From assembly GCA_016839805.1 (NCBI GenBank), contig JAEOTO010000009.1:8369-72368 (forward strand): DNA of 64,000 nt. The letters run 5' to 3'. Each line of letters begins with the position of its first letter. Position 1 is the stretch's first letter. The position numbers and the translations under genes are program-made. Origin of the DNA: Candidatus Hermodarchaeota archaeon. GTDB lineage: Archaea > Asgardarchaeota > Hermodarchaeia > Hermodarchaeales > Hermodarchaeaceae. The notes under the pieces were generated by a model, which was given only the letters and a program-made list of their open reading frames with translations, was not told the origin of the DNA and did not search any database. Shown here in pieces: positions 5,345-57,209 of the stretch.

Positions 5345-6349
5345 ATGAAGAGACGAGTGTGTTTGGTAACAGGGGCGTGTGGGTTTGTTGGAAGCCATTT
5401 CATTGATCAGTTACTCCAACATCCCGAATATGAGGTTCGGGGAACCGATTTAGCGAGCGCGGATCAGACCTTCTTGAATCCTGACGCAGAATTCATGCCC
5501 GGAGATCTTAGGGACCCAACAACTTTTGCTCCCATTGTCAAAGGTGTTGATTTCATTTTTCATGCAGCTTCGCTATTTCGCTACTCTGCATCTTGGGATA
5601 ACTTGTCAGCGGTGAATGTTGAAGGCACTCGAAATCTTTGTAGTGTTGCAATGAAAGCAAAGGTTTCGAAATTTGTGCTCATTAGCAGTGCAGGTGTCTA
5701 TGGAATTCCCTGCTCAATACCTGTTCGAGAAGAGGATTCTCTCCATCCATCAAATCCATATGAACAATCAAAATTAGACCAGGAACAGGCTGCACAACAG
5801 GTCTGTGAAGATGGAAAACTGGGTCTAACTATTCTCCGTCCCGCTCCCATTTATGGACCTCGAAATCGTTATGGGATTGGCACTATATTGCGGATGGTGG
5901 CTTATGGACAACTCCCTATCATTTCAGAGAATGTCAATACCTTAGTCCCATTGGTCCACGTTGCTGATGTGGTTGGCGCTGGCCTGCACTTATTAACTCA
6001 TCCTGCAGCAACTGGTCAAATCTTCAACGTGGTCGATGATACTACATACCGCAAATACGAATTATTTTCTTACATAGCTCCACTACTGAATACTAAAATT
6101 TACCACACACGGGTTCCACTTCTACCCAAGTGGCTTCTTAAAGCTGTAGCCTCATGGTCGGAGTGGAAGGCTCGGAATATCACACATGACCTGCCTAAGA
6201 TAGAAAAGGCTACAATTGATTTGATGTATCATAACTATTGGTTTAGTAATGCTAAACTCAAAGCTACCGGCTATCAACTCATCTATCCTGACTCGCGCTT
6301 TGGATTAAAAGATACCATTGACTGGTTTAAACGCCATGATTGGCTCTAG
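5345..6349 (+). CDS. NAD-dependent epimerase/dehydratase (extended SDR; 3-beta-HSD-like)
   Basis: Rossmann motif VTGACGFVGSHF immediately after the ATG at 5345, which is preceded by GGAGAGGAG. Catalytic YxxxK in NPYEQSK. The ORF-track start at 5201 looks like a spurious upstream extension. Confidence 0.85.
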   Translation: MKRRVCLVTGACGFVGSHFIDQLLQHPEYEVRGTDLASADQTFLNPDAEFMPGDLRDPTTFAPIVKGVDFIFHAASLFRYSASWDNLSAVNVEGTRNLCSVAMKAKVSKFVLISSAGVYGIPCSIPVREEDSLHPSNPYEQSKLDQEQAAQQVCEDGKLGLTILRPAPIYGPRNRYGIGTILRMVAYGQLPIISENVNTLVPLVHVADVVGAGLHLLTHPAATGQIFNVVDDTTYRKYELFSYIAPLLNTKIYHTRVPLLPKWLLKAVASWSEWKARNITHDLPKIEKATIDLMYHNYWFSNAKLKATGYQLIYPDSRFGLKDTIDWFKRHDWL

Positions 6350-6440
6350 CGACATGCTGTTGCTAGGGCATTTATTGATGGTTCTATGTACTTGAAGCGA
6401 TTTTAAGGAACAGCTGACTGGATTGTAGGGTTAGGTTCGA

Positions 6441-7181
6441 TTAAGACTGGGTTCGTCGGCGTCGGAGTAAAGTGATGCCTACAGCCGTGAGGACTCCTAC
6501 CACGATGGCTGCGATGGGGAAGCCAGGGATTGGTGGTTGAGCTAATACTCCATCTGTACCGCTGACAACGATATTGTCGATACCGTAGCCGTGGGGGGCA
6601 CTTCCCAAACTGAAGTAATTAGAGGTAGTATAGGTGTTGTCTAAGGCCGTGAGGTATAGTGAACCTTCGACCCGGACATAGAAGGTGCCATTGGCGAGTC
6701 GGTCGATTTGGATGTCCTTCATACCGTCTGCGGGAGCGTAGGTGGCGCTGTCAAGTATGATTTCAGTCGTATCTGTTGATTTGATTAAATTGATGTGTGT
6801 GTTATTCAGTTCAATAAGATAGCCTTCCATGGTGGTATCAAAAATTGATGTGGTTTTGACATTGTGCATGAACCCGACGATGCCTTTTGTACACGTGGAG
6901 ATGTAAAGCAAGTCGAAGGTCCAGGTGCCATAGGATGCATCGCTAGCTCGGTAGATATGCGCCTCGTGTGGGAAACCGGTAGAGCTTGTTGAGCGCAGAA
7001 TCCCGACACCGGCTGCAAATCCCCCAATTGTGACGTTCCACTCTGGGTAGAAGCTTCCATCGGTGAAGTTGTCTGTCCAATAGACATCGGCGGCCGCACA
7101 GGGTGGGATGGTTGAAACCGCTACATTCAATATCAGAATTGATCCTATTACAAATGCTAAGAGGAGATGTTGTTTTTGCAT
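6441..7181 (-). CDS. Secreted protein with a PGF-CTERM archaeosortase-type sorting signal; body possibly ConA-like lectin/glucanase fold
   Basis: 246 aa. N-terminal signal/anchor LLLAFVIGSILILNVAV. C-terminus PPIPGFPIAAIVVGVLTAVGITLLRRRRTQS has a PGF motif, a hydrophobic helix and a basic tail. Several N-x-S/T sequons. Confidence 0.7.
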   Translation of the reverse strand: MQKQHLLLAFVIGSILILNVAVSTIPPCAAADVYWTDNFTDGSFYPEWNVTIGGFAAGVGILRSTSSTGFPHEAHIYRASDASYGTWTFDLLYISTCTKGIVGFMHNVKTTSIFDTTMEGYLIELNNTHINLIKSTDTTEIILDSATYAPADGMKDIQIDRLANGTFYVRVEGSLYLTALDNTYTTSNYFSLGSAPHGYGIDNIVVSGTDGVLAQPPIPGFPIAAIVVGVLTAVGITLLRRRRTQS

Positions 7182-31876: not shown

Positions 31877-33205
31877 ATGGAGTCCAAAAGTGATAAGATT
31901 ATCTTTGGAAAAGGTGAACTTGAAGGTCATCGGTTTCATCTTCGGAAAGATCCGAAGGGTGGCACAATTGTCATCGACGCCTCACGATTACTATTCTTGA
32001 ATGAAACCGGTTATGACTATGCAACTGCTGCAGTCGAAGGAAAATCTGAAGATGAGGTAATCGCACTCATTAAACAGAAATATCGGGGTGCAAAACCAGA
32101 TGCGATTCGTGCTGATTATGATGAATTAAAAGACAAAATATTGTCGTTCATTGCACAGCCGGATGTTTCTCCCATCGAAACTTTTGACTTTGGTGAAGTC
32201 GAACCTTTCTCCCATGACCCCCAAGCACCATATCGCATCGATCTAGCACTCACATATCGCTGTAATAACAATTGCTCACATTGTTATGTGCCCCCAGAAC
32301 GGCGTGGATGGGATGCTACCCGGGAAATGGATACTAGTAAATGGAAGCAAGTTCTTGACAAATTACTGGATTTGGCCATCCCTCATGTAACCTTCACAGG
32401 TGGTGAACCCACCCTTCGTGACGACCTAGTAGAGCTTATTCAGTACAGTGAAGACATCGGCATAATCGCAGGACTAGTGACAAATGGACGGCGCCTCACC
32501 CAATCTATGGTGGATGATTTGGTCAACGCTGGAATAGACTACGTTCAAATTACCTTGGAATCACATCTCCCAGACATTCATGATCAAATGGTAGGAATAA
32601 CGGGTGCTTGGAAGGAGACCATGGCTGGTTTGAAGCGATTCATCGCCACCGATATCTATACCATAACCAATACCACACTAACCCAGCTAAACCGATCAAC
32701 AATCACAGACACCGTCGCATTTCTCGCGAAATTAGGTCAAACTAATTTTGCTATGAACGGTCTCATCTACTCAGGAAGTGGTCGTGATGTGGCTGATAAA
32801 CAAGCGATTCCCGAGCAAGACCTTGACGAACTCATCACTGATATTCTCGCTGAAGCCAGTGAACATGATATGAGGCTTATCTGGTATTCACCCACCATGT
32901 ATTGTCATTTTGATCCAACAGAATATGGGCTAGGTCCACGACGTTGCAGTGCAGCCTACTCAAGCCTTGCTATTGAGCCTAATGGGAACGTCTTACCCTG
33001 TCAAAGCTACTTTGAATCATTAGGGAATATTCTCAAAAATTCTTGGGACACCATCTGGAACCATCCTACTGCCAAAGCGCTCCGTGGACATACCAAAGTC
33101 GCTGAGGAATGCCTTTCGTGTGAGCTCCTCAAGAAATGCGGTGGCGGCTGTCCCCTCTTCACAGAATACAAAGAGGTTTGTTGCCATCACAGTCTAGGCG
33201 GTTAA
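31877..33205 (+). CDS. Radical SAM/SPASM enzyme with an N-terminal PqqD-like (RRE) domain; putative peptide/protein maturase
   Basis: 442 aa, preceded by an AAGGAG SD. N-terminal ~100 aa (LLFLNETGYDYATAAVEGKSEDEVIALIKQKYRGAKPDAIRADYDELKDKILSFI) fits the PqqD/RRE pattern. rSAM motif CNNNCSHC. C-terminal Cys-rich SPASM region ending in CLSCELLKKCGGGCP. Confidence 0.8.
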   Translation: MESKSDKIIFGKGELEGHRFHLRKDPKGGTIVIDASRLLFLNETGYDYATAAVEGKSEDEVIALIKQKYRGAKPDAIRADYDELKDKILSFIAQPDVSPIETFDFGEVEPFSHDPQAPYRIDLALTYRCNNNCSHCYVPPERRGWDATREMDTSKWKQVLDKLLDLAIPHVTFTGGEPTLRDDLVELIQYSEDIGIIAGLVTNGRRLTQSMVDDLVNAGIDYVQITLESHLPDIHDQMVGITGAWKETMAGLKRFIATDIYTITNTTLTQLNRSTITDTVAFLAKLGQTNFAMNGLIYSGSGRDVADKQAIPEQDLDELITDILAEASEHDMRLIWYSPTMYCHFDPTEYGLGPRRCSAAYSSLAIEPNGNVLPCQSYFESLGNILKNSWDTIWNHPTAKALRGHTKVAEECLSCELLKKCGGGCPLFTEYKEVCCHHSLGG

Positions 33206-33255
33206 CATCTTATCAACTCTTCAAAAACAGAGCCCCTTATTGAGAGGGTCAAGCG

Positions 33256-33969
33256 GTGGAACTCTACACGACCCATTTTCTATGCAACCAAGCCCACCGT
33301 ACAGCTCCAACCCGACAATTCTTCTATACGCAAACAAACTGGAAAACAGCACCTATCAGCCTAGATTTAGGCTGTGGAACCGGAGTAATTACATCCGAAC
33401 TTACCTTCTCCCATGCCCAAGCAATTGGACTCGACATCAATCCCGACCTCCTGACTCAAGCAGTTATGGATAACCGTCCCAATAACTCCGTCCACCTCGT
33501 TCTTGCAGATGCTACTTCTCTACCTTTTCGATCATCTATTGTCTCCTTTGTACTAAGCCACTTCACTTTAATGTGGATTCACAACCGTGAAACTGCCCTT
33601 GCTGAATTAAAGCGAATCCTCCGACCCGGGAGCCTTCTTGCGGCAATTGAACCAGATTACACGGGTCGAATTGAAATCCCCAAAAACGCCGAATACACTT
33701 CTCACTCTCCCATCATCGATTATCTAATATTTCGAGGGGCTGACCCCTTCATTGGTGGGAAACTCCCTTTTGAACTTCAAAATTTTGACTTCACTGAAGT
33801 GCAGTTTGGGACATTATCTTGGGAATATCATCCCGAAGCCGCCCAAACAGAGATTCAAGATGAAGCTACCCTCCTGCAAGCTAAAGGGATTCACTGGAAA
33901 CAACCGGTTTTCACTTACACTCCAATTTTTTGGGTTATCGCATTCAAACGAGAAATTCGCTCAGAATAG
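33256..33969 (+). CDS. Class I SAM-dependent methyltransferase
   Basis: 237 aa with a GTG start. Motif I SLDLGCGTGVIT. Confidence 0.8.
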   Translation: MELYTTHFLCNQAHRTAPTRQFFYTQTNWKTAPISLDLGCGTGVITSELTFSHAQAIGLDINPDLLTQAVMDNRPNNSVHLVLADATSLPFRSSIVSFVLSHFTLMWIHNRETALAELKRILRPGSLLAAIEPDYTGRIEIPKNAEYTSHSPIIDYLIFRGADPFIGGKLPFELQNFDFTEVQFGTLSWEYHPEAAQTEIQDEATLLQAKGIHWKQPVFTYTPIFWVIAFKREIRSE

Positions 33970-34039: not shown

Positions 34040-34471
34040 CTATGGACCGAAGAGCCAAATGAGCAATAAGACTATTACGAAGACAAGAATGAACGCTATA
34101 ATGATCATGAAGATGACGTACAGTAAGCCAACGGCGATAGCGCCGAGTATTCCGGTATCAAAGAAGTGCATAATTAGCCAGATGTAAAGAATGAAGACAA
34201 CAAGCAGTGGTATGGCTATCGCTAGAATTTGACCAATTAGTCCAGGTGGCAATAATGGTGCGACAAATGTATCTATGACCCAACCTAAGATTTCGTTGAG
34301 AATAGCGCCTAGGAGAGAGATCCAGAGTGCGTCCGTGAATTTGGCATTTTCAGGTCCTGCAACTACACGACCTGCGATCCAGAGAATCAGTGATCCTAAT
34401 AACCAGACGATGAGGAAGGGAATGATTACCAATACGATGAATTCTATAATTTGCATTACGAGTACTCCCAT
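34040..34471 (-). CDS. Small four-TM membrane protein (possibly DUF360/holin-4-like)
   Basis: 143 aa, extremely hydrophobic. The family resemblance is weak. Confidence 0.5.
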   Translation of the reverse strand: MGVLVMQIIEFIVLVIIPFLIVWLLGSLILWIAGRVVAGPENAKFTDALWISLLGAILNEILGWVIDTFVAPLLPPGLIGQILAIAIPLLVVFILYIWLIMHFFDTGILGAIAVGLLYVIFMIIIAFILVFVIVLLLIWLFGP

Positions 34472-34620: not shown

Positions 34621-34866
34621 TTAAAATGGAATGGGTACAAACAAGATGAACGAAAGCGTCGTCACAACGACGTCAATTATGAAGTAACATACCACAGCTA
34701 ACATTGTAAGGGCTAACGCACTAAAAATCCCCATCTTCTGGTATAAAACGAGCAAAGCCAGCAGCACAATCATCGCGACAATAAGGGCAATGAAATTTAC
34801 CGGAATTGGGATGCTGAAATACATAATCCACCAACTGATTTCTTTCATTACCACGCTAATAATCAC
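34621..34866 (-). CDS. Small membrane protein, hypothetical
   Basis: 81 aa with three hydrophobic helices. Confidence 0.4.
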   Translation of the reverse strand: MIISVVMKEISWWIMYFSIPIPVNFIALIVAMIVLLALLVLYQKMGIFSALALTMLAVVCYFIIDVVVTTLSFILFVPIPF

Positions 34867-35209: not shown

Positions 35210-36547
35210 ATGCCACATTTTCTCGATCTATTCCTTCAAGAGTTACAAGAAAAACGTGAAGCCTTCCGTCGGAGGTTAACAGGTGAAGAAGCCTCAGAAT
35301 TAGATGGTCTTTTGAAGAAGTCGTTTATCAAGGAATGGCGAGAATTGCCTTCACCTAAAACAGAAGACCTTCGTGTAATTGCCGTAGACAGTGGACGTTC
35401 CATGCGAGAATACGCTGCAGGCTCACTCATGTATATTTGTCGGGCTAGTGCATACACTTCGTGGGGAAAACAATATCGGCGAGTCGTTTCAAACGCGCAT
35501 ATGATTAGTTCTCCACGGGAACGCCTTATTGACCTTGTGAGTCTGCGATCAGAGCACTTAGAACACCAAGTGGCTCTTGAAGCAGTGCAGGCATCATCGG
35601 ATGTTGATTTGGTGTTACTTGATGGATCTTTGTATGGTCGGATTACGCATGTCCCAATCTCGTTCAATTATCCTGGAGAACGGGATTTGTATTTACGTTT
35701 CATGCAGACTTTTATTCGACTTCTTGAAGAATGTCGTAAACGGAAGATTCTGATATTAGGTATAAGCAAGGATTCGGTGGCTCGGCATCTTACACGCCTG
35801 CTCTTGGAAACAGTCAAGGTTCAAGTATTGCAGAGCTTCAAGCAGATGCTTTCTTCCTCCGATTTCGAACAATTACACGAATATCTTGAAACCGAGGAGA
35901 AACAATCGGTTTCTGCTATTCGATTTCTACGGGATTTATCACTTAGCGACAACCAAGAACAATTGTTATGGGATTTACTCTATGAGCTGCGACGCCCACG
36001 ACCTGACTTTGCCCTAATTCAGGCCTGGACTGAAACTGCGGGGTATACAACACCAATTGAACCCTATCCAGATGTGCCACTGTTCAAATATGAGTCAAAA
36101 GATCCCGCTGATTATGTTCGACGACGGTTTGTAAACGCCTACAAAGATTATCAGCAAGAGGAAGATTTTGAGAACTGGGCGATTCCAGTGATGCGGGGTA
36201 CTTTCGAGCTCCCCACCTTCGTGACGTTTTGTGCAAAACTTGCACATAATGATACCCCGATGCGTATTGATATGCCTGCCTTTAATACAGGTTTACCAAC
36301 CCGTATTTCACAGATTTCTGCGGCTCGAATGCTCGATCCAACTCCTCAGCGGGTAATAGAGGTCTTACAGCTGCTTCAAGGGGAATATGGTGGACCTGAA
36401 CTCTACAACGTCTTTCTGGTCCGTGCAGACCAAGAAGCAAGATTACCTATGAGCGATGTGACAACCCTTTATGAACCATTGGTAGAAAAGGAATTGAAAA
36501 TACCCCTAGTACCTAAACGTCGAGACAGGAGGATACGATATGTCTAA
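35210..36547 (+). CDS. nurA: NurA 5'-3' nuclease
   Basis: 445 aa. NurA-type acidic motifs VIAVDSGRS and LVLLDGSLYG. Operon partner of herA, with which it overlaps by 8 nt. Confidence 0.85.
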   Translation: MPHFLDLFLQELQEKREAFRRRLTGEEASELDGLLKKSFIKEWRELPSPKTEDLRVIAVDSGRSMREYAAGSLMYICRASAYTSWGKQYRRVVSNAHMISSPRERLIDLVSLRSEHLEHQVALEAVQASSDVDLVLLDGSLYGRITHVPISFNYPGERDLYLRFMQTFIRLLEECRKRKILILGISKDSVARHLTRLLLETVKVQVLQSFKQMLSSSDFEQLHEYLETEEKQSVSAIRFLRDLSLSDNQEQLLWDLLYELRRPRPDFALIQAWTETAGYTTPIEPYPDVPLFKYESKDPADYVRRRFVNAYKDYQQEEDFENWAIPVMRGTFELPTFVTFCAKLAHNDTPMRIDMPAFNTGLPTRISQISAARMLDPTPQRVIEVLQLLQGEYGGPELYNVFLVRADQEARLPMSDVTTLYEPLVEKELKIPLVPKRRDRRIRYV

Positions 36548-38171
36548 AACCCAACAAGATGAGCCAGTAGGATTCATTGTTGAAGAAGCCCGAGCTACAG
36601 AATTCATATTTGCTAGTGACCGAAAACGGTATCCAGCGAAATTCGAATATCTCACCGTAAACTCAGAAGAATTGGTAGATAGGACACTCAAACCCGTCGA
36701 AGTTCTTGCTCAGGTTGAACGGATCACTTCCCAAAGCCTTGCCCTTCGTCGCAGTCTGGACATTGAAGCAATCTATCGGATTAAGGAAGCAGGAATTGAT
36801 GATGTCAAAACCTGGGGAATTGCACGGGTCCTAGGCTATCTAGTTCCTACAACCAAAGGACAACCTCCACGAATTCTCCTTCCTCGCCGCGCAGTGACTC
36901 CAGGAAACGCGATTTATATTGCACCAGATAGTCTTCTTGCCAAATTCTATGCCTATCCAAAAGAAGAGAGTCTTTATGTTGGAAATCTAATTTCTCGACC
37001 TCAGATTCCCGTGCATTTACGCATTAACGGCTTTCGACGGCATGTCGCCATTCTAGCCCAAACGGGTGCTGGTAAAAGCTATCTTACAGGTGTATTAATC
37101 GAAGAACTCATGGATCGGGGAGCCACTGTAATTATCATCGACCCTCATGCTGATTACGTATTCTTAAGTCAAAGTCTCAAAGGCGACAAACATGGTTTCT
37201 CAGACCGTGTAACTGTGTTCCAAAATCCCGAAAGCACCGGTCGATATAGCAAGAAAGATATCGGTGGAGTAGAATCCTATACCGTTCGATTAGCTGATCT
37301 TGACTTCGACGAATTATGCGGAATCTGCGGCATTGGCGAAAAGTATACCAATATCCGGGCAGGTTTAGCGACGGCTCTAAAACAACTCCAAGAAAGAAAT
37401 GTCGTCTATCTAACTGAGGATATCGAAAAGGAACTGAACACAGTAGCCAATACTGAGGATTTAGATAAATCCATCCGCTTCGGTGCTCTCAACGCAACAA
37501 AATATGTTAGACGCCTTCACCGCCTTCGCGTCTTCTCGCGCAGCGGCGTACCTATAGAGAAAATCATCAAACCCTATCATTCGTCGATTATCGATTTATC
37601 CGGACTTGGCAATCGCAGCACAGATTACATCGTCAGTCGGCTGCTAAAAGATGTGTTTGAAGCTGTGGCCACCGATGCCTTTGCATATCCCGTTTTTGTA
37701 GTCGTAGAGGAGGCACACACCTTTGTCCCCCCTGAATTCCCCACCTATTCTGCGAATATTATTCGACGAATTGCTCAAGAAGGACGAAAATTCGGTGTCT
37801 TCCTTCTCCTAATTAGTCAACGACCTGGGCGAATTCATCCAGATAGTCTTAGCCAATGTAATAGTCAGATCGTCCTCAAAATTACTAATCCTCGTGACCA
37901 AAACGCCATTGCTCAATCATCTGAACGGTTAAGTGAGGACCTTATCTCCGATCTACCCGGCTTAAATGTGGGCGAAGCTGTTGTAGTCGGTGATATTACT
38001 CGGACACCTGTGATGATTAAGGTTCGACCCCGTAATACGCGAGAGGGCGGTGCTGATATTGACGTCGTCGCTCGGCTCAAACAAGCCCGAAAAGCTGCAG
38101 GAATTGATGCCCAACTCGTTCAGGAACGTAAGCAAGAAAAGAAATTGAAGGGAGCGTTCTCTGAGGTGTAA
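36540..38171 (+). CDS. herA: HerA hexameric DNA helicase/translocase (FtsK-HerA superfamily)
   Basis: 543 aa. Walker A AQTGAGKSY, Walker B VFVVVEEAH, SD GGAGGA upstream. Confidence 0.9.
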   Translation: MSKTQQDEPVGFIVEEARATEFIFASDRKRYPAKFEYLTVNSEELVDRTLKPVEVLAQVERITSQSLALRRSLDIEAIYRIKEAGIDDVKTWGIARVLGYLVPTTKGQPPRILLPRRAVTPGNAIYIAPDSLLAKFYAYPKEESLYVGNLISRPQIPVHLRINGFRRHVAILAQTGAGKSYLTGVLIEELMDRGATVIIIDPHADYVFLSQSLKGDKHGFSDRVTVFQNPESTGRYSKKDIGGVESYTVRLADLDFDELCGICGIGEKYTNIRAGLATALKQLQERNVVYLTEDIEKELNTVANTEDLDKSIRFGALNATKYVRRLHRLRVFSRSGVPIEKIIKPYHSSIIDLSGLGNRSTDYIVSRLLKDVFEAVATDAFAYPVFVVVEEAHTFVPPEFPTYSANIIRRIAQEGRKFGVFLLLISQRPGRIHPDSLSQCNSQIVLKITNPRDQNAIAQSSERLSEDLISDLPGLNVGEAVVVGDITRTPVMIKVRPRNTREGGADIDVVARLKQARKAAGIDAQLVQERKQEKKLKGAFSEV

Positions 38172-38176
38172 ACACC

Positions 38177-39340
38177 GTGCCGATTACTATTCTTCACACC
38201 TCAGATTCACATTTAGATATTCCTGCCATTAAATTTGGTTCTCGGCGCTATGAACGAAAGAATGATTTTCTCAAATCCTTTGATACCATAGTTTCAACCG
38301 CTTTAGAAAAGAAACCCGATCTTTTTCTCCATTCTGGCGACCTTTTTGACGGACTGAATCCGCGAAATCCGGTTCGAGCCCGAGTCATGGAAGCCTTTAG
38401 AAAACTACACGAGAAACAGATTCCCATTTACATTATCAGCGGAAACCATGATGTTCCTCGGGCGCGTCGTCATGGAGTAGCCCCCCTATTAGAATACGCC
38501 CGTACAGGCTTTGTCAACTTTTTTCCTGAATGGGAAACAATACAATCTAGCACCATCAATTTGCATGACCTTGAAGTTGAAATCTCAGGAATTTCTTTTA
38601 ATCCCACATTAGGACCTTCAGAAGATCCCCTTCATCAATTATCCATTCCGGGAAAAGGTGATGTTAACATCCTTCTAGCCCACTATAATGTAGAAGGACT
38701 TCGTGGAACCTTTCCCTATGAACCCGATATCCTACTCAAGTCAATACCCAAGAATCTGACATATCTTGCTGCAGGTCACAACCACGAATATCAAAAGCAA
38801 CAAGTTGGAAACACAACAATCTGTACTCCCGGAAGCACAGAGCACGTAACCTTTTCTGAGGAATCTCAAAAGAAGGGTTTTGTCTGGTTAGAAATCGACA
38901 CACATGCCGTACAAAAACTCCAATTCTTCCCCATTGAAACCCGCCCAATGCAAACACAGGATGTCACGATTCCCGCTGATGTTAATATCAATCAAATGCT
39001 TATCAAAGAAATCGATCGTCTGCGAAATCCCCAGCTTATCCTCCGGTTTCGTCTTCAGGGTGTCATGACGATTAAATCAGCTGAACAGTATCGTCGAACT
39101 GAAGTCGTACGGCATGGGTTTGCGAAATGCTTCTCCACTGAAATCGTGGACGAACTCGAATACATCAGCCCCGATCCAGATTTTCTTACTCCTGAAACTG
39201 AATTGAAACCACCAATCACCGAATATCGTGATTATGTTAATGCGAGAGTAAAACAAGAGAAAGACCTAGAAAAGAAGGCATTACTCCAAAAAGCATTAGA
39301 TCGCGGGCTAGCTCTTTTAGAAGACTCAGGAGGTTGGTAG
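38177..39340 (+). CDS. mre11: Mre11 nuclease
   Basis: 387 aa with a GTG start. All phosphoesterase motifs are present: HTSDSHLD, GDLFD, GNHD, LLAH, GHNHE. Confidence 0.9.
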   Translation: MPITILHTSDSHLDIPAIKFGSRRYERKNDFLKSFDTIVSTALEKKPDLFLHSGDLFDGLNPRNPVRARVMEAFRKLHEKQIPIYIISGNHDVPRARRHGVAPLLEYARTGFVNFFPEWETIQSSTINLHDLEVEISGISFNPTLGPSEDPLHQLSIPGKGDVNILLAHYNVEGLRGTFPYEPDILLKSIPKNLTYLAAGHNHEYQKQQVGNTTICTPGSTEHVTFSEESQKKGFVWLEIDTHAVQKLQFFPIETRPMQTQDVTIPADVNINQMLIKEIDRLRNPQLILRFRLQGVMTIKSAEQYRRTEVVRHGFAKCFSTEIVDELEYISPDPDFLTPETELKPPITEYRDYVNARVKQEKDLEKKALLQKALDRGLALLEDSGGW

Positions 39341-39344
39341 GGGA

Positions 39345-41711
39345 ATGGTCGTTTTACAGCAACTAGTGGCTCGAGATTTCAAGCACTTAGATCTTGATAT
39401 CAACTTTCCTCAAGGCATCCTCGCGATTAGTGGTCCAAATGAATCCGGAAAATCTTCAATCTTTGAAGCAATACTCTTTGCCTTCTTCGGACGGACCCAT
39501 AAAGCACCCTTGGGACAAAAAGACCGCCTCATCAATTACGATGCGGATAAACTATTCGTACGTTTATTCTTTGAAGTTGAAGGTACCCAATACCGAATTA
39601 CTCGACAAATCCATCGAAAACGTCCCAGTACTGCCCAACTCCACAAAATCGCTCGATCTGGACAAGCTTCTCTTCTAGCAACAGGGGTCAAAAATGTCGA
39701 AGCTGAAGTGAGCACTCTACTTAATGGAGTGGATCTGAATGACCTACTGGCAAGCAATATCGTACTTCAGAAAGATTTAGACCGTCTGGCACAAATGCCG
39801 AAAATGGACCGTCGACACGTTATCAATGCAATGATGGGACGCGAGTGCTTTTCACGCGCTGATAATAAACTAGCAACTGAACTCCGACCCTTAAGAAATG
39901 CCCTCAAACCAACAGGAGAAACTCTCAAAGAGCTGCGGTTCCGTAAAGACGCGTACCTAGAACAGACTCAGGAATTAGAAGCAAAGCAAAAAACTTTGAC
40001 TCAAATTGAGGGTCAATTAAAAGAAATTAATCAAACATTTGCTCAAAGTGAGAAGAAATACAAGGCTGTCAAGGCTTACAAGATAGCAAAAGATGAACAA
40101 AAGGATTTAGAGCGTGAAATTAAGTTCCGACTAGAAACTCAGGACCGCTTGGAAAAGCAATTAGCGAATTTGGATAAACTTCAGAGGCAACAAAAGAAAC
40201 TCCGTGGGCAAGCGAAACAGCTTGACTATCTTCAAGATGATATGACCATCTTTGAACAATTGCAAGACGCATCTGAAAAGCTCAAAGCTACTGTAGACGA
40301 ACTACAAATGACGACCGAAGTTATTTCATCACTTGAAGGCCAAGTGGGCGAGTTAAGTACACTGCAAGACGTTGTAACAGAGTATGAACAAATTAAGAAT
40401 CAGCGAATCAGTATCGAAGTCAGCCAAAACCAGATTCTCTCACCTCTCCTTTACATTCCTTCGATTGGACTTCTTGCCGCTGGAATTATGGCACTCTTCT
40501 TCAATCTAATCGTAGGGATAGTTTTTCTCCTAGCATCCATTCCCTTTGTAGCTTATCTCATCAAGAATTATTTCAATTATAGTCGCCTTGCAGCCAAACT
40601 AGATCAGATGCGAAGAAAAGAAGAGGAACTGAGTGAACAGGTAGCAAAGTACCGGACCAAAGAAACTTTTGAAGAACAACTTCAAGACCGCCTCAACCGA
40701 GATAAAGAACTAACCAACCAAATCACGCAGCTCTCAACACAAGTTCAGAGTCAACTCAAAAACCTCTCAACGACATTATTAGAAGGGGTAAAACCACCAA
40801 AGGACTCTGACGCACACACTCTGCGAGACACTGTAAGAACCGTAGAACAAAGACTTTTGGAACTTCAAGCAAGTCAGAAATCAGTTACTGACCAGTTACA
40901 ATCAATTGAGGGACAATTAGCAGATCTTCGTGAAGCAAAAGCAGATCTTACACGAATTGTGAAAGAAATTACTACCCTACGAGAACAACTTTCTTCAATG
41001 ACTCTTCCCCCACTTCCCGAAGAAATTGCCGAGTATACCGAAGCGTTGTATGAGCAGCTCGACCAGCAAATCAAGACAATGGGTGAAGAAAAAGCGACTA
41101 TACAAGAGAGTCGGAGAAATACTGTTCAGCGTATTAATGAACTTTCAGTTCTTCTAAAAGAGAACGAAGGAGTTCTAGACGAATTCACAAATAAAGAACG
41201 GGAATTTTTCCAGCTTGATCAGAATATAAAATCTGGTGAACTCACGATTGAATTAATACGTGAGGTCGCGGAACAAGGTCGTGAACAAGTACGTCCACGC
41301 GTTGTACATGTCATGGAACGTATATTGGCAACGATTACTGATGGAAAATACCGGTTTCCTAAGCTAAGTGAAGACTATAGCCTTAAGGTCTATTCGGCAA
41401 CAGCTGGTGAATATGTACAAGCAACACTCTACAGCGGAGGAACCGAAGATCAATTCCTCCTAGCTCTCCGTCTTGGATTTGCTATTGCATTGCTTCCCCA
41501 AGGCCGTGGTGCGACGCCCCAATTCCTTCTACTCGATGAACCCTTCGGAGGTTCTGATATTCAACGCAGGGATAATATTATTCGTCTACTGAAAGATGAA
41601 TTATCTCGCACCTTTCAACAAATTATTGTCGTGAGTCATCAGTCGGCTGTCCTCTCAGCTTCTGAACATCAATTTCGAATGATCAATGGACGAATTATTC
41701 ATTCGGATTAG
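39345..41711 (+). CDS. rad50: Rad50-family SMC-like ATPase lacking the zinc hook; hydrophobic hairpin at the coiled-coil apex
   Basis: 788 aa. Walker A GPNESGKSS, signature YSGGTEDQ, Walker B/D-loop LLLDEPFGGSD, H-loop VVSHQ, and long heptad-rich arms. Residues 364-406 are ILSPLLYIPSIGLLAAGIMALFFNLIVGIVFLLASIPFVAYLI. The whole protein has one Cys. Confidence 0.85.
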   Translation: MVVLQQLVARDFKHLDLDINFPQGILAISGPNESGKSSIFEAILFAFFGRTHKAPLGQKDRLINYDADKLFVRLFFEVEGTQYRITRQIHRKRPSTAQLHKIARSGQASLLATGVKNVEAEVSTLLNGVDLNDLLASNIVLQKDLDRLAQMPKMDRRHVINAMMGRECFSRADNKLATELRPLRNALKPTGETLKELRFRKDAYLEQTQELEAKQKTLTQIEGQLKEINQTFAQSEKKYKAVKAYKIAKDEQKDLEREIKFRLETQDRLEKQLANLDKLQRQQKKLRGQAKQLDYLQDDMTIFEQLQDASEKLKATVDELQMTTEVISSLEGQVGELSTLQDVVTEYEQIKNQRISIEVSQNQILSPLLYIPSIGLLAAGIMALFFNLIVGIVFLLASIPFVAYLIKNYFNYSRLAAKLDQMRRKEEELSEQVAKYRTKETFEEQLQDRLNRDKELTNQITQLSTQVQSQLKNLSTTLLEGVKPPKDSDAHTLRDTVRTVEQRLLELQASQKSVTDQLQSIEGQLADLREAKADLTRIVKEITTLREQLSSMTLPPLPEEIAEYTEALYEQLDQQIKTMGEEKATIQESRRNTVQRINELSVLLKENEGVLDEFTNKEREFFQLDQNIKSGELTIELIREVAEQGREQVRPRVVHVMERILATITDGKYRFPKLSEDYSLKVYSATAGEYVQATLYSGGTEDQFLLALRLGFAIALLPQGRGATPQFLLLDEPFGGSDIQRRDNIIRLLKDELSRTFQQIIVVSHQSAVLSASEHQFRMINGRIIHSD

Positions 41712-42623
41712 TTATATCAGTTTAATCAGAACTGGGCGAGTTTCTTGGTATTGATATCCTTGAGTTTCAAGGAATCCGTATTGATTTTCACGGGAAAATA
41801 CTGTCAATTGAGTTACACCGTTTGTTTTACTCAAAAACTCAGTAACTGGTAATACAGTTGCCAAGAAGCTGGAGGCTTGGCTAGTTTTAGCTAACCAAAT
41901 TCTTACATAGTGATGGTCAGTGGATAAGGCTTCATCATTTTCTTGACGTAGCAACCAAAGATTAGGACGTGGTATGTCGGTTTCTAGTAGTGTGTATAAT
42001 CGATTCATGTTACGTAAATATGCCCAGGTATACTGTGAGGAGTAATTAATTCCCAGCCCTGGCTCAAAACCCATTGGTAGTTGTTTACGTGGTGCCCATT
42101 GTAGAGGAATTCTTTGGATACTAGATTTGGTAGGGAGAAGAGATTCGCGTTTTAACGACTTGGTGAATTTGGCTTCGTGTCCTGAAAGGTTAAAACCATT
42201 AGTGCAGAAAAAATTGACGGCTTCATCATCCTCAGTTATCGTAGTTACTTGTGTACAGCCCTTCGCCTGGCTAATTTGGCAAGCATGTTCTAATAGAATT
42301 GAGCCAATGCCTTCATGGCGATGCTCAGGGTCAACAATAATCCATGCGATATTACCTTGCTTTGTGGTCGGTGATATCTTCTCAAAAAGAAGTTCGACCT
42401 CTCCCAGGATAGCATCTTTGGTACGGGCTACTAGAATGATTCCACCTGCATCTTCCATTACCTGTAGATGAAGGTTGAGTGTGTCAGGGTCAACCCAAGG
42501 ACCTTCTTGCTGCCAGCGCTCCCATTTAGAGAGCCCTTCTTCAGCAAAGGTGCTTCGATTTAGGGTTACTAGGCCTAATAGGTCCCGTTTTACATTGGCT
42601 TCTTGCACTATAACTTCATTCAC
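41712..42623 (-). CDS. GNAT-family N-acetyltransferase (two-domain)
   Basis: 303 aa. Acetyl-CoA-binding motif IVDPEHRHEGIGSILLEHA. Its stop codon directly abuts the rad50 stop, with zero intergenic nucleotides. Confidence 0.75.
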   Translation of the reverse strand: MNEVIVQEANVKRDLLGLVTLNRSTFAEEGLSKWERWQQEGPWVDPDTLNLHLQVMEDAGGIILVARTKDAILGEVELLFEKISPTTKQGNIAWIIVDPEHRHEGIGSILLEHACQISQAKGCTQVTTITEDDEAVNFFCTNGFNLSGHEAKFTKSLKRESLLPTKSSIQRIPLQWAPRKQLPMGFEPGLGINYSSQYTWAYLRNMNRLYTLLETDIPRPNLWLLRQENDEALSTDHHYVRIWLAKTSQASSFLATVLPVTEFLSKTNGVTQLTVFSRENQYGFLETQGYQYQETRPVLIKLI

Positions 42624-42718: not shown

Positions 42719-44101
42719 ATGCTATTCACGACGGAGACACCGGAGAATATAGTCATGAGCGATTCAGAACTTCATCGTTGGCAAAAAGCCTTCCCCCTAG
42801 CAGGGTTCAAACCCGCACTCAACGCACCAACAAACGAAGAAAAACGGATCGCACAGCAATTTTGTCCAACCATCTATGCCGACTTAGAATTGGTTAAGGA
42901 GGAGCAAGCGGATTTAACAAAGAATCTTGGAATCGATGGAAAAGCTACCGGCTTCTTCGCATCACTTAAAGAACGAGTGGCAAGTAAAGACTTTGCAGGA
43001 ATTGCGGATACCCTGTTTTTGTTCTGTCTTGGCGATTTCCCCAATAACCTCGCTGGGGCAAAACTCGCGATTCTTGGAGTCGAACTCCCTGAAAGTGAAA
43101 TCCCTTGGGATAAAGAAATGCGCAAGGTATTAGATCAACTTCGTGAAAGGCTCCAATCCGAATACTCACAACAATCTCGTGACTTTATCACCAATCTCTT
43201 CCACATGATTCTTCCCACTGAGCAAACACCAACTTGTGTACTCAAATACCAGGTCAATAAAGATCCCAATGATCCTAATATCTACTGCATTCAGTATTTT
43301 GCTTATTGGCCAATTCAGCTGTTTCCTCGCCACTTGTATGATTATGAGCCGATTTATGTCATTGTCCGTAAAGAAGGCAAAACGTATCATCCACTGATAA
43401 CCACTTTTAATGCTGAATATGGAGCCCGACCCTTACTGAAAGGAAAACGACCAGGTCATATGATTCGAACGTTTTTCAATTGGGATAGTAAAGACCTGCA
43501 AATCTCTCCTGATGATTTCAATCCAATGGCAGACTATATGACCAAAGCCTTTGGGGGGAGTTACTTTTATGAGAAAGTGCCTAGCGATCGCCGTGTGAGT
43601 CACATAGAAAACCTCCAATGTGGTGCTCATACCATCGCTTTACATGTCCCTAATCGGTGGCATTCTTATGATCTTTGCACTGCTGATGTACGCCGGGATA
43701 AGACAGCACTTCCCTGTAACCTTCACCCACTCAAAACACAAGATTTGCTTCATATTGAATGGAACATCCTGAACCCTTTCCAAGCACCCTTTCTTTATCC
43801 CAATATCGGAAAGAAAAATGCCCTTATGCATTTCCCGCTGGATGCATCCACACTCTGGAAGAGTGAAATCTATCGTCGATGGAGTGACTATGCAATGGTG
43901 GAGTTTCATATCAAACACGGACGCCCATCTCAAACGGTATCGAACATGTATGCGTACCAAGTAGGGCTTTTCATCGATTTGTTCGGAGAAATTACTGGGG
44001 AAAGCATGGGATTAAGTATGTGGCCATTAATCGAGGCACGCGAACGCGAAATCGAAGGAACTCTCTCCTTTATCAAACGTTTACGGCGACCAAAGAAATA
44101 G
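42719..44101 (+). CDS. Hypothetical 460-aa protein, unknown family
   Basis: Long clean ORF with no confidently recognised domain. The segment YFAYWPIQLFPRHLYDYEPIYVIV is faintly reminiscent of the H-x-x-D-W-E core of Vps62/NPP1-like proteins, at very low confidence. Confidence 0.55.
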   Translation: MLFTTETPENIVMSDSELHRWQKAFPLAGFKPALNAPTNEEKRIAQQFCPTIYADLELVKEEQADLTKNLGIDGKATGFFASLKERVASKDFAGIADTLFLFCLGDFPNNLAGAKLAILGVELPESEIPWDKEMRKVLDQLRERLQSEYSQQSRDFITNLFHMILPTEQTPTCVLKYQVNKDPNDPNIYCIQYFAYWPIQLFPRHLYDYEPIYVIVRKEGKTYHPLITTFNAEYGARPLLKGKRPGHMIRTFFNWDSKDLQISPDDFNPMADYMTKAFGGSYFYEKVPSDRRVSHIENLQCGAHTIALHVPNRWHSYDLCTADVRRDKTALPCNLHPLKTQDLLHIEWNILNPFQAPFLYPNIGKKNALMHFPLDASTLWKSEIYRRWSDYAMVEFHIKHGRPSQTVSNMYAYQVGLFIDLFGEITGESMGLSMWPLIEAREREIEGTLSFIKRLRRPKK

Positions 44102-55014: not shown

Positions 55015-55097
55015 CGATGTGAGATTTCTAGCAGGAATAGCAGTTTTAAGCCTTTTAGATACGCTACGGTTATCATTTCGAAGAGATAATGAAGTAG

Positions 55098-55171
55098 CGG
55101 GCCCTCAGCGATTTGAACGCGGGACCTCCAGATTCGGAGTCTGGCGCCATATCCAACTAGGCCAAGGGCCC
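55098..55171 (-). tRNA. tRNA-Arg (anticodon CCG)
   Basis: Hand-folded cloverleaf. Acceptor GGGCCCT/AGGGCCC, anticodon arm CCAGA-CTCCGAA-TCTGG, T-arm CCGCG-TTCAAAT-CGCTG (one C:U mismatch at 50:64), discriminator G. No encoded CCA. Confidence 0.85.
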
Positions 55172-57132: not shown

Positions 57133-57209
57133 GGGCCCGTGGCCTAGTTGGATATGGCGCTGGATTGCGGATTCAGAGATCCGGGGTTCAAATCCCCGCG
57201 GGCCCGCCA
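57133..57209 (+). tRNA. tRNA-Arg (anticodon GCG), CCA encoded
   Basis: Hand-folded. Acceptor GGGCCCG/CGGGCCC, anticodon arm CTGGA-TTGCGGA-TTCAG, T-arm CGGGG-TTCAAAT-CCCCG, discriminator G, then genomic CCA. Confidence 0.9.

Follow-up and report, generated by a model that had tools for sequence, protein, structure and literature searches.

The last gene of a nurA-herA-mre11-rad50 operon, carried by a 64,000-nucleotide stretch of DNA from a Candidatus Hermodarchaeota archaeon (contig JAEOTO010000009.1; hereafter the window, meaning the whole stretch that was analysed), encodes a Rad50-type protein of 788 amino acids in which a predicted transmembrane-type hairpin of two hydrophobic helices occupies the tip of the coiled-coil arms in place of a CxxC zinc hook. 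The zinc hook is regarded, from work in yeast, human, archaeal and bacterial systems, as a universal and functionally essential feature of Rad50/SbcC proteins. The window protein departs from them in this respect: it contains one cysteine, C168 in the motif GRECFS of the head, and no CxxC, as had been claimed in the original prediction made from the letters of the window. The zinc-hook model of Pfam (Rad50_zn_hook, PF04423), whose use had been proposed there as a check, gave no match in the protein at E<=1; among four hook-bearing control homologues it missed three and detected one, with a match below the cut-off. Because this model is insensitive, the absence of the hook rests on cysteine content. 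The gene and the parts of its product are as follows:

39345..41711 (+): rad50-like gene, 788 amino acids and stop, hook-less, with a hydrophobic apex; Pfam AAA_23 and SMC_N, NCBIfam Rad50_Sulf 7.6e-39
39345..39842 (+): N-terminal ABC head lobe, with Walker A at 39432-39458 and the Q-loop at 39762-39776; beta/alpha head in the AlphaFold model, with a predicted local distance difference test (pLDDT) score of ~85-95
39843..40433 (+): ascending coiled-coil arm, residues 167-363; AlphaFold helices 167-292, 296-338 and 341-364
40434..40562 (+): hydrophobic apex block, residues 364-406; helix 1 at 40443-40502, turn N387 at 40503-40505, helix 2 at 40506-40562
40563..41336 (+): descending coiled-coil arm, residues 407-664; AlphaFold helices 388-472, 490-551, 566-606 and 610-664, with interruptions at residues 473-489 and 552-565
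41337..41708 (+): C-terminal ABC head lobe, with the signature at 41430-41453, Walker B/D-loop at 41526-41558 and H-loop at 41628-41642

The apex block (ILSPLLYIPSIGLLAAGIMALFFNLIVGIVFLLASIPFVAYLI) has exactly the sequence and position previously given for it, a 43-residue uncharged stretch at residues 364-406, and the uncharged run is in fact longer, covering 48 residues (359-406). The Kyte-Doolittle mean over 19 residues reaches a maximum of 2.68 and exceeds the customary transmembrane threshold of 1.6 only for segments starting at residues 364-392. None of 20,000 residue shuffles of the protein produced an uncharged run of at least 48 residues, and a Kyte-Doolittle maximum of at least 2.68 was reached in 0.36% of them, although shuffles retain the hydrophobic residues of the block itself. 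The two apex helices have Eisenberg mean hydrophobicities of 0.81 and 0.91 and hydrophobic moments of 0.12 and 0.14, values typical, on hydrophobicity and low moment, of transmembrane-type helices and not of amphipathic bundle helices. The block is followed by a basic and aromatic flank, KNYFNYSRLAAKLDQMRRK, which would be membrane-proximal in the topology proposed below. The sequence thus presents the elements of a transmembrane hairpin, i.e., two hydrophobic spans of ~20 residues, a central turn residue and, across the family, positive flanks.

An AlphaFold2 model of the window protein, run with an 18-sequence alignment (mean pLDDT 83), shows arms 167-364 and 388-664 folded back on each other into a long antiparallel coiled coil with a helix-turn-helix at its tip. 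Helices 367-386 and 388-472 are separated at N387, the only break in the apex, in line with the earlier reading of the block as two hydrophobic helices parted by an asparagine.

The head carries every ABC motif that had been listed for it, and we could locate each of them in the protein: Walker A (GPNESGKSS, residues 30-38) and the Q-loop (Q142) in the N-terminal lobe, and the signature (YSGGTEDQ, 696-703), the Walker B/D-loop (LLLDEPFGGSD, 728-738) and the H-loop (VVSHQ, 762-766) in the C-terminal lobe. In Pfam, AAA_23 (72 bits) and SMC_N score above their cut-offs. A PDB profile search with the family profile returned M. jannaschii Rad50 as the best match (4.9e-51) and E. coli SbcC at 4e-25, and the top Foldseek match was C. 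thermophilum (Chaetomium) Rad50 (7zr1, 6e-23), with SMC proteins and heads of archaeal Rad50 ranking next. Judged by its best family and structure matches, to archaeal Rad50 heads, and by the intact partner genes beside it, the protein is a Rad50 subunit.

The same apex recurs in all but the most distant relatives of the protein. A search of 5.8 billion proteins yielded a set of 79 homologues, among them 71 hydrophobic-apex relatives (one further row being the query), and all 71 (~19-88% identity, from Asgard archaea, 'Thermoprotei', Infirmifilum and others) have a mid-protein hydrophobic block and no mid-protein CxxC; the most distant of the 79 present the reverse, a mid-protein CxxC and no block. 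In an exhaustive profile search of 1.84 billion cluster representatives (50% identity), from which the best 150 matches, all of at least 335 bits, were taken, the block is present in 148 of the 150 and the hook in none. Of the two exceptions, one is a fragment of 239 residues, and in the other a CxxC falls incidentally within the hydrophobic segment. Nearly all of these representatives have a Walker A motif of the form GxNE[SAT]GK[ST]. Their block has a median length of 47 residues (~2x20 plus a turn), and a turn-promoting or polar residue stands in its central 10 residues in 121/149. The 12-residue flanks are net positive on both sides, with a total of +2.5 vs -0.8 expected from the arms (Wilcoxon p=1.4e-24), and positive flanks on both sides fit the positive-inside rule and an in-out-in hairpin with both arms cytoplasmic.

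Among 44 full-length Asgard orthologues (47-88% identity), conservation is higher in the apex (0.71) and especially in helix 1 (0.78) than in the arms (0.56-0.58), with near-invariant apex residues SP, Y, PSI, AG, G, PF and YL, a pattern that points to specific helix packing rather than to a mere greasy anchor. The block stands at the same position in these 44 proteins, which come from independent assemblies, and cultured organisms with complete genomes have it as well; in the window itself the ORF (open reading frame) runs without interruption and keeps the two head lobes in one frame. This conservation across independent genomes excludes an origin of the block by faulty assembly, by a frameshift or by recent insertion into this contig. 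Nothing was found in favour of such an origin, to which we give practically no chance; an artefact or insertion had been named in the original prediction as a ground for refutation. In these comparisons, which include the cultured and fully sequenced Thermofilum pendens and Dictyoglomus thermophilum, the hook-less hydrophobic apex is no peculiarity of the window genome but defines a large and little-studied family shared by archaea and bacteria.

The rad50-like gene is the last of four co-oriented genes with the gene content of an end-resection operon, and both the family matches and the coordinates agree with the gene order previously assigned. The genes are tightly packed (nurA/herA 8-nucleotide overlap, herA/mre11 5-nucleotide gap, mre11/rad50 4-nucleotide gap), and the phosphoesterase motifs of Mre11 (DSH, GDLFD and GNHD) are intact, so that by gene adjacency Rad50 is taken to be partnered with this Mre11. 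Upstream of rad50 the operon comprises:

35210..36547 (+): nurA, 445 amino acids, first gene of the operon; Pfam NurA 6e-18
36540..38171 (+): herA, 543 amino acids, hexameric DNA translocase/helicase; Pfam DUF87/HerA 1.2e-37, Walker B FVVVEEAH
38177..39340 (+): mre11, 387 amino acids, nuclease partner; Pfam Metallophos 9.5e-18, NCBIfam Mre11_Sulfo 1.8e-27

The order nurA-herA-mre11-rad50 recurs in 12 other loci (L001-L005, L008, L010, L013, L014, L019, L090 and L091) and is syntenic across an Asgard clade. The carriers include Infirmifilum sp. SLHALR2 (complete genome CP182482), Thermofilum pendens Hrk5 (CP000505), whose 840-residue Rad50 has zero cysteines, Guaymas 'Thermoprotei' contigs, one 204-kb JGI contig, Bathyarchaeia, one uncultured archaeon and metagenome-assembled genomes of Thor/Hermod-type Asgard archaea. 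The bacterium Dictyoglomus thermophilum (CP001146.1; L091, 3206..10130) has the archaeal gene order with a Rad50 of 983 residues and 3 cysteines, suggesting transfer of the whole module between domains. In some Bathyarchaeia and Nitrososphaeria loci, mre11 alone is found upstream of the hook-less rad50. In a Thermofilaceae-like contig (L004), a PIN/CcdA-type toxin-antitoxin pair on the opposite strand (6273..6940) lies between nurA and herA and splits the operon.

The window system resembles the canonical archaeal Mre11-Rad50/HerA-NurA systems of Pyrococcus furiosus, Methanocaldococcus jannaschii and Sulfolobus in its four-gene operon, ABC head motifs, antiparallel arms and intact Mre11. It differs from canonical archaeal Rad50 in having no CxxC, 0-1 cysteines (none in T. 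pendens, one in the window protein) and a transmembrane-type hairpin of ~43 residues at the apex. The head motifs also differ, with Walker A GxNE[SA]GKS in the window family vs the canonical GxNGSGKS and signature SGGTEDQ vs the canonical SGGE, both canonical forms being seen in PfRad50.

A hook-less relative of SbcC with a hydrophobic centre was described in 2009 in Bacillus subtilis. SbcE (YhaN) has no CxxC, and its conserved central domain, hydrophobic in the first half, is completely insoluble when expressed alone; the partner of SbcE is the SbcD-like SbcF (YhaO), and it is involved in double-strand-break repair and transformation (PMC2811018). Membrane insertion of SbcE was not proposed in that paper (PMC2811018). 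Like SbcE, the window protein is a hook-less Rad50-like protein with a hydrophobic region between its arms, encoded next to a gene for an SbcD/Mre11-like nuclease; unlike the SbcE/YhaN locus, the window operon has HerA-NurA partners and no yhaM-type OB/HD exonuclease. By analogy, then, SbcE may serve as a functional precedent, in a distant relative, for a hook-less protein with a hydrophobic centre and a role in break repair. In UniProt, transmembrane segments are reportedly assigned to YhaN. We found no description of a membrane-bound or membrane-type Rad50 or SbcC in the literature covered, which does not include Krishnan et al. 2020 (NAR 48:10045), and reviews of Rad50 hinges and archaeal SMC-like proteins mention no hydrophobic or membrane apex. 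In the literature covered, the statement that no such arrangement was known holds for a membrane-inserted Rad50 and falls for a hook-less protein with a hydrophobic centre, which SbcE, if only as a distant relative, has represented since 2009 (PMC2811018); an already characterised family of this kind had been among the stated grounds for refutation, and SbcE supplies it in part.

We rejected the classification of the window protein as SbcE/YhaN, since a head-only profile and a rough tree of heads both put the Bacillales SbcE beyond SbcC and PfRad50. With the archaeal head-only profile, archaeal family members score 267-521 bits and the hydrophobic-apex proteins of Rubrobacter, Chloroflexota and Dictyoglomus 176-235, followed by hook-bearing bacterial SbcC (~140), PfRad50 (~107) and Bacillales YhaN-type proteins (34-88). 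In the neighbour-joining head tree, which is rough and carries no support values, the archaeal clade groups with Dictyoglomus, Chloroflexota and Rubrobacter, hook-bearing proteins form the sister group, and YhaN-type as well as Planctomycetota/Gammaproteobacteria groups fall elsewhere. AAA_27 gives 25 bits (cut-off 22) on the window protein, against 72 for AAA_23, vs 83 and 47, respectively, on the YhaN-type protein of Salinibacillus. This protein comes from a true yhaO-yhaN-yhaM locus (L077), and its central hydrophobic block lies at ~471-518. More widely, scanning genomes with the Walker A and signature motifs of the family recovered many bacterial genes for hook-less, hydrophobic-apex SbcC-like proteins, often adjoining an SbcD-like gene, from Chloroflexota, Actinomycetota, Bacillota, Planctomycetota, Gammaproteobacteria, Myxococcota and others. 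One Chloroflexota homologue (L022, 2590..6447; 1286 residues for the ORF as extracted) has WCEAC near its middle and no clear hydrophobic block; it may represent an exception to, or an intermediate in, the otherwise hook-less clade, or the product of an ORF-calling problem in high-GC DNA.

Hydropathy, hydrophobic moment, flanking charge, conservation, the AlphaFold model and conservation of the operon all agree with the hydrophobic hairpin that had been proposed for the apex, its insertion into the membrane being a prediction. We infer membrane insertion, dimerisation through the hairpins and a general role in double-strand-break end processing, and we regard as the probable arrangement, with some reserve, a membrane-anchored Mre11-Rad50 in which the hairpin replaces the hook and which serves general end processing together with HerA-NurA. 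Mre11-Rad50 would be expressed together with the translocase HerA and the nuclease NurA. The ATPase head and the antiparallel arms of ~200 residues, about 30 nm, conform to the ordinary Rad50 type. The 43-residue helix-Asn-helix hairpin would enter the cytoplasmic membrane with both ends cytoplasmic, and the hairpins of two Rad50 molecules would pack laterally within the membrane plane, joining the arm tips in place of zinc. The hairpin would also fix the complex in space, with the heads hanging ~30 nm into the cytoplasm, where they would clamp DNA ends for cleavage by Mre11 and subsequent HerA-NurA resection. As to the turn, Monne, von Heijne and colleagues (1999) reportedly found, in work on turn propensity, that one Asn or Pro placed midway along ~40 hydrophobic residues can induce a helical hairpin.

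The same hairpins might instead, in line with the hydrophobic dimerisation named as the alternative in the original prediction, remain outside the membrane and form a soluble, greasy four-helix bundle that replaces zinc-mediated apex dimerisation. Dimerisation of the apex is a conserved requirement of Rad50, the residue-specific conservation of the apex suggests helix-helix packing, and SbcE-YFP forms foci on nucleoids (PMC2811018), all of which would suit such a bundle. A bundle would nevertheless need polar outer faces, and the helices are uniformly hydrophobic; moreover, the length of the block is ~2x a membrane span, its flanks follow the positive-inside rule (p~1e-24) and the isolated central domain of SbcE is insoluble (PMC2811018). 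Because the helices are non-amphipathic and the flanks biased in charge, we consider the soluble bundle improbable.

Several points weigh against the membrane-anchored Rad50 that we favour. For the identity of the protein, the NCBIfam equivalog cut-offs for Rad50, which span 700-1087 bits, are not reached (Rad50_Sulf 133 bits vs 1000, PRK03918 129 vs 700). For every family member, insertion into the membrane is a prediction. The extracellular turn, of ~1 residue, would be unusually tight, and re-entrant or monotopic insertion is equally possible. Structurally, the pLDDT of the apex is moderate (63-79), and an AlphaFold model of the distant Infirmifilum homologue P0068 reproduces head and arms with an apex pLDDT of ~42-48; this second run therefore adds no independent structural support for the hairpin. 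In B. subtilis, SbcE-YFP was seen as foci on nucleoids and at poles, with no membrane rim (PMC2811018). Finally, the family could be an accessory paralogue beside a canonical hook-bearing Rad50.

On this last point, no other SMC-like ORF was found within the window, and a search with the PfRad50 head (97% identical to UniRef entries) returned short fragments only, the Bathyarchaeial match in the search for a second Rad50 being a stand-alone fragment of 151 residues. P0091 is SMC-like and bears a hook, but its gene stands alone, with no Mre11. Among the 120 matches listed in a search for Mre11, there was one Mre11 type per named Thermofilaceae genus. We put forward only tentatively, as somewhat short of an even chance, that the hook-less and putatively membrane-anchored protein is the sole Rad50 in Thermofilaceae, parts of the Bathyarchaeia and Nitrososphaeria, Thor/Hermod-type Asgard archaea and Dictyoglomus. 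A stand-alone hook-bearing SMC-like gene, for a product of 863 residues, was observed in L089 (7001..9592), with a Rad50_zn_hook match just under the cut-off and no Mre11 neighbour; its contig also carries a methanofuran-pathway gene (4HFCP synthase) and a split transketolase, hence a likely archaeal context, and the gene probably encodes an archaea-specific SMC-related protein (ASRP) rather than a Rad50.

A protein anchored in the membrane in this way could have as its main job the processing of DNA that crosses the membrane, whether imported in competence- or Ced/Ted-like exchange or invading as linear phage or plasmid DNA, another Rad50 being in charge of chromosome repair. Imported or foreign DNA ends first appear at the membrane, and the best argument for such a role comes from SbcE, which accumulates at the competence pole and whose loss cuts transformation 20-fold (PMC2811018). 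In some Thermoproteales, Rad50 and HerA-like genes adjoin Ted DNA-import loci, and HerA-NurA has been proposed as the source of transferred single-stranded DNA (PMC9905601); the several Bathyarchaeia/Nitrososphaeria loci that pair the hook-less Rad50 with Mre11 only would also fit. Gene context speaks for a different role. No pilus, Ced/Ted, competence or defence genes were found within 6-10 kb of any archaeal locus examined, and the neighbours of the examined loci are metabolic or translational, i.e., housekeeping genes. PADLOC gave no defence-specific match, only generic ones (mad3 93 bits, LmuB 78 bits) below the Rad50 repair models, and for HerA the NCBIfam double-strand-break repair model (223 bits) exceeds the best PADLOC HerA model (176 bits). 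Essentially nothing similar to the family was found in plasmid records, and the gene content is that of the essential archaeal end-resection operon, syntenic across the Asgard clade. The uptake, transfer or defence role raised in the original prediction thus finds no support in gene context, and we rejected a defence or mobile-element role on the negative PADLOC and plasmid searches. We consider it rather unlikely that membrane-crossing DNA is the main substrate; gene content and housekeeping context suggest that the operon is a resident end-resection system.

Other SMC-type ATPases share parts of the architecture. E. coli-type SbcCD likewise has a nuclease and Rad50/SbcC gene pair, an ABC head and coiled-coil arms, but SbcC has a CxxC hook, and the hook-bearing bacterial homologues of our set (P0073, P0075-78) have neither the block nor HerA-NurA neighbours. 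ASRPs (ClsN/coalescin, Sph1/2) and arcadin-4 are, like the window protein, archaeal SMC-superfamily ATPases with arms, and weak NCBIfam matches were obtained (ASRP 9e-17, Rkd4 2e-6); the vast majority of ASRP sequences have a zinc hook (PMC9389158). ASRPs also have no Mre11 paired with them, and the window protein scores much better on Rad50 models. Among defence ATPases, Lamassu LmuB, Wadjet JetC, PARIS AriA and MADS mad3 also combine a Rad50/SMC-type head with a coiled coil, but the window locus has neither effector genes nor the surroundings of a defence island; its partners are Mre11, HerA and NurA.

A large natural family within the canonical archaeal end-resection operon appears to have swapped the zinc hook for an apparent membrane anchor. 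If true, this would constitute a natural experiment on the purpose of the apex, i.e., tethering as such vs zinc chemistry; some archaea and bacteria would have their DNA-end processing localised to the membrane, and membrane insertion would account for two findings on SbcE from 2009, its position at the poles and the insolubility of its central domain. If, in addition, the protein were the sole Rad50 of these lineages, the essential Mre11-Rad50/HerA-NurA machine would work tethered to the membrane, the zinc hook would be dispensable provided that the arm tips are held together otherwise, and break processing could be peripheral in prokaryotes, including close relatives of eukaryotes. T. pendens and D. 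thermophilum are cultured, and Rad50 proteins with 0 and 3 cysteines suit topology mapping by cysteine accessibility.

The surroundings of the operon present additional conserved features. A 303-residue GNAT acetyltransferase, encoded on the opposite strand (41712..42623, -), abuts the rad50 stop codon; its position is kept in L005, L009 and L010, and it is missing in L008. Next to it, a 460-residue ORF (42719..44101, +) has no Pfam, NCBIfam or PDB sequence match and is found directly 3' of the rad50-like gene in 4/4 Asgard loci examined (L005, L008, L009 and L010; 60-75% identity). It is absent beside the operons of TACK archaea, and either a lineage-specific partner or mere synteny is possible. 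Just upstream of nurA, two small and very hydrophobic ORFs lie on the opposite strand, one of 143 residues (34040..34471, -) and one of 81 residues (34621..34866, -); the former, which matches Phage_holin_4_2 below threshold (3.5e-3), is kept upstream of nurA in L010 with 59% identity. Farther upstream (31877..33969, +) come a radical SAM/SPASM protein, weakly PqqD-like at its N-terminus, and after it a class I methyltransferase; the two look like a peptide-maturation pair and are also syntenic in L010. No RNA genes were detected in the window apart from two for tRNA-Arg, at 55097..55171 (-) and 57133..57209 (+), with anticodons CCG and GCG.

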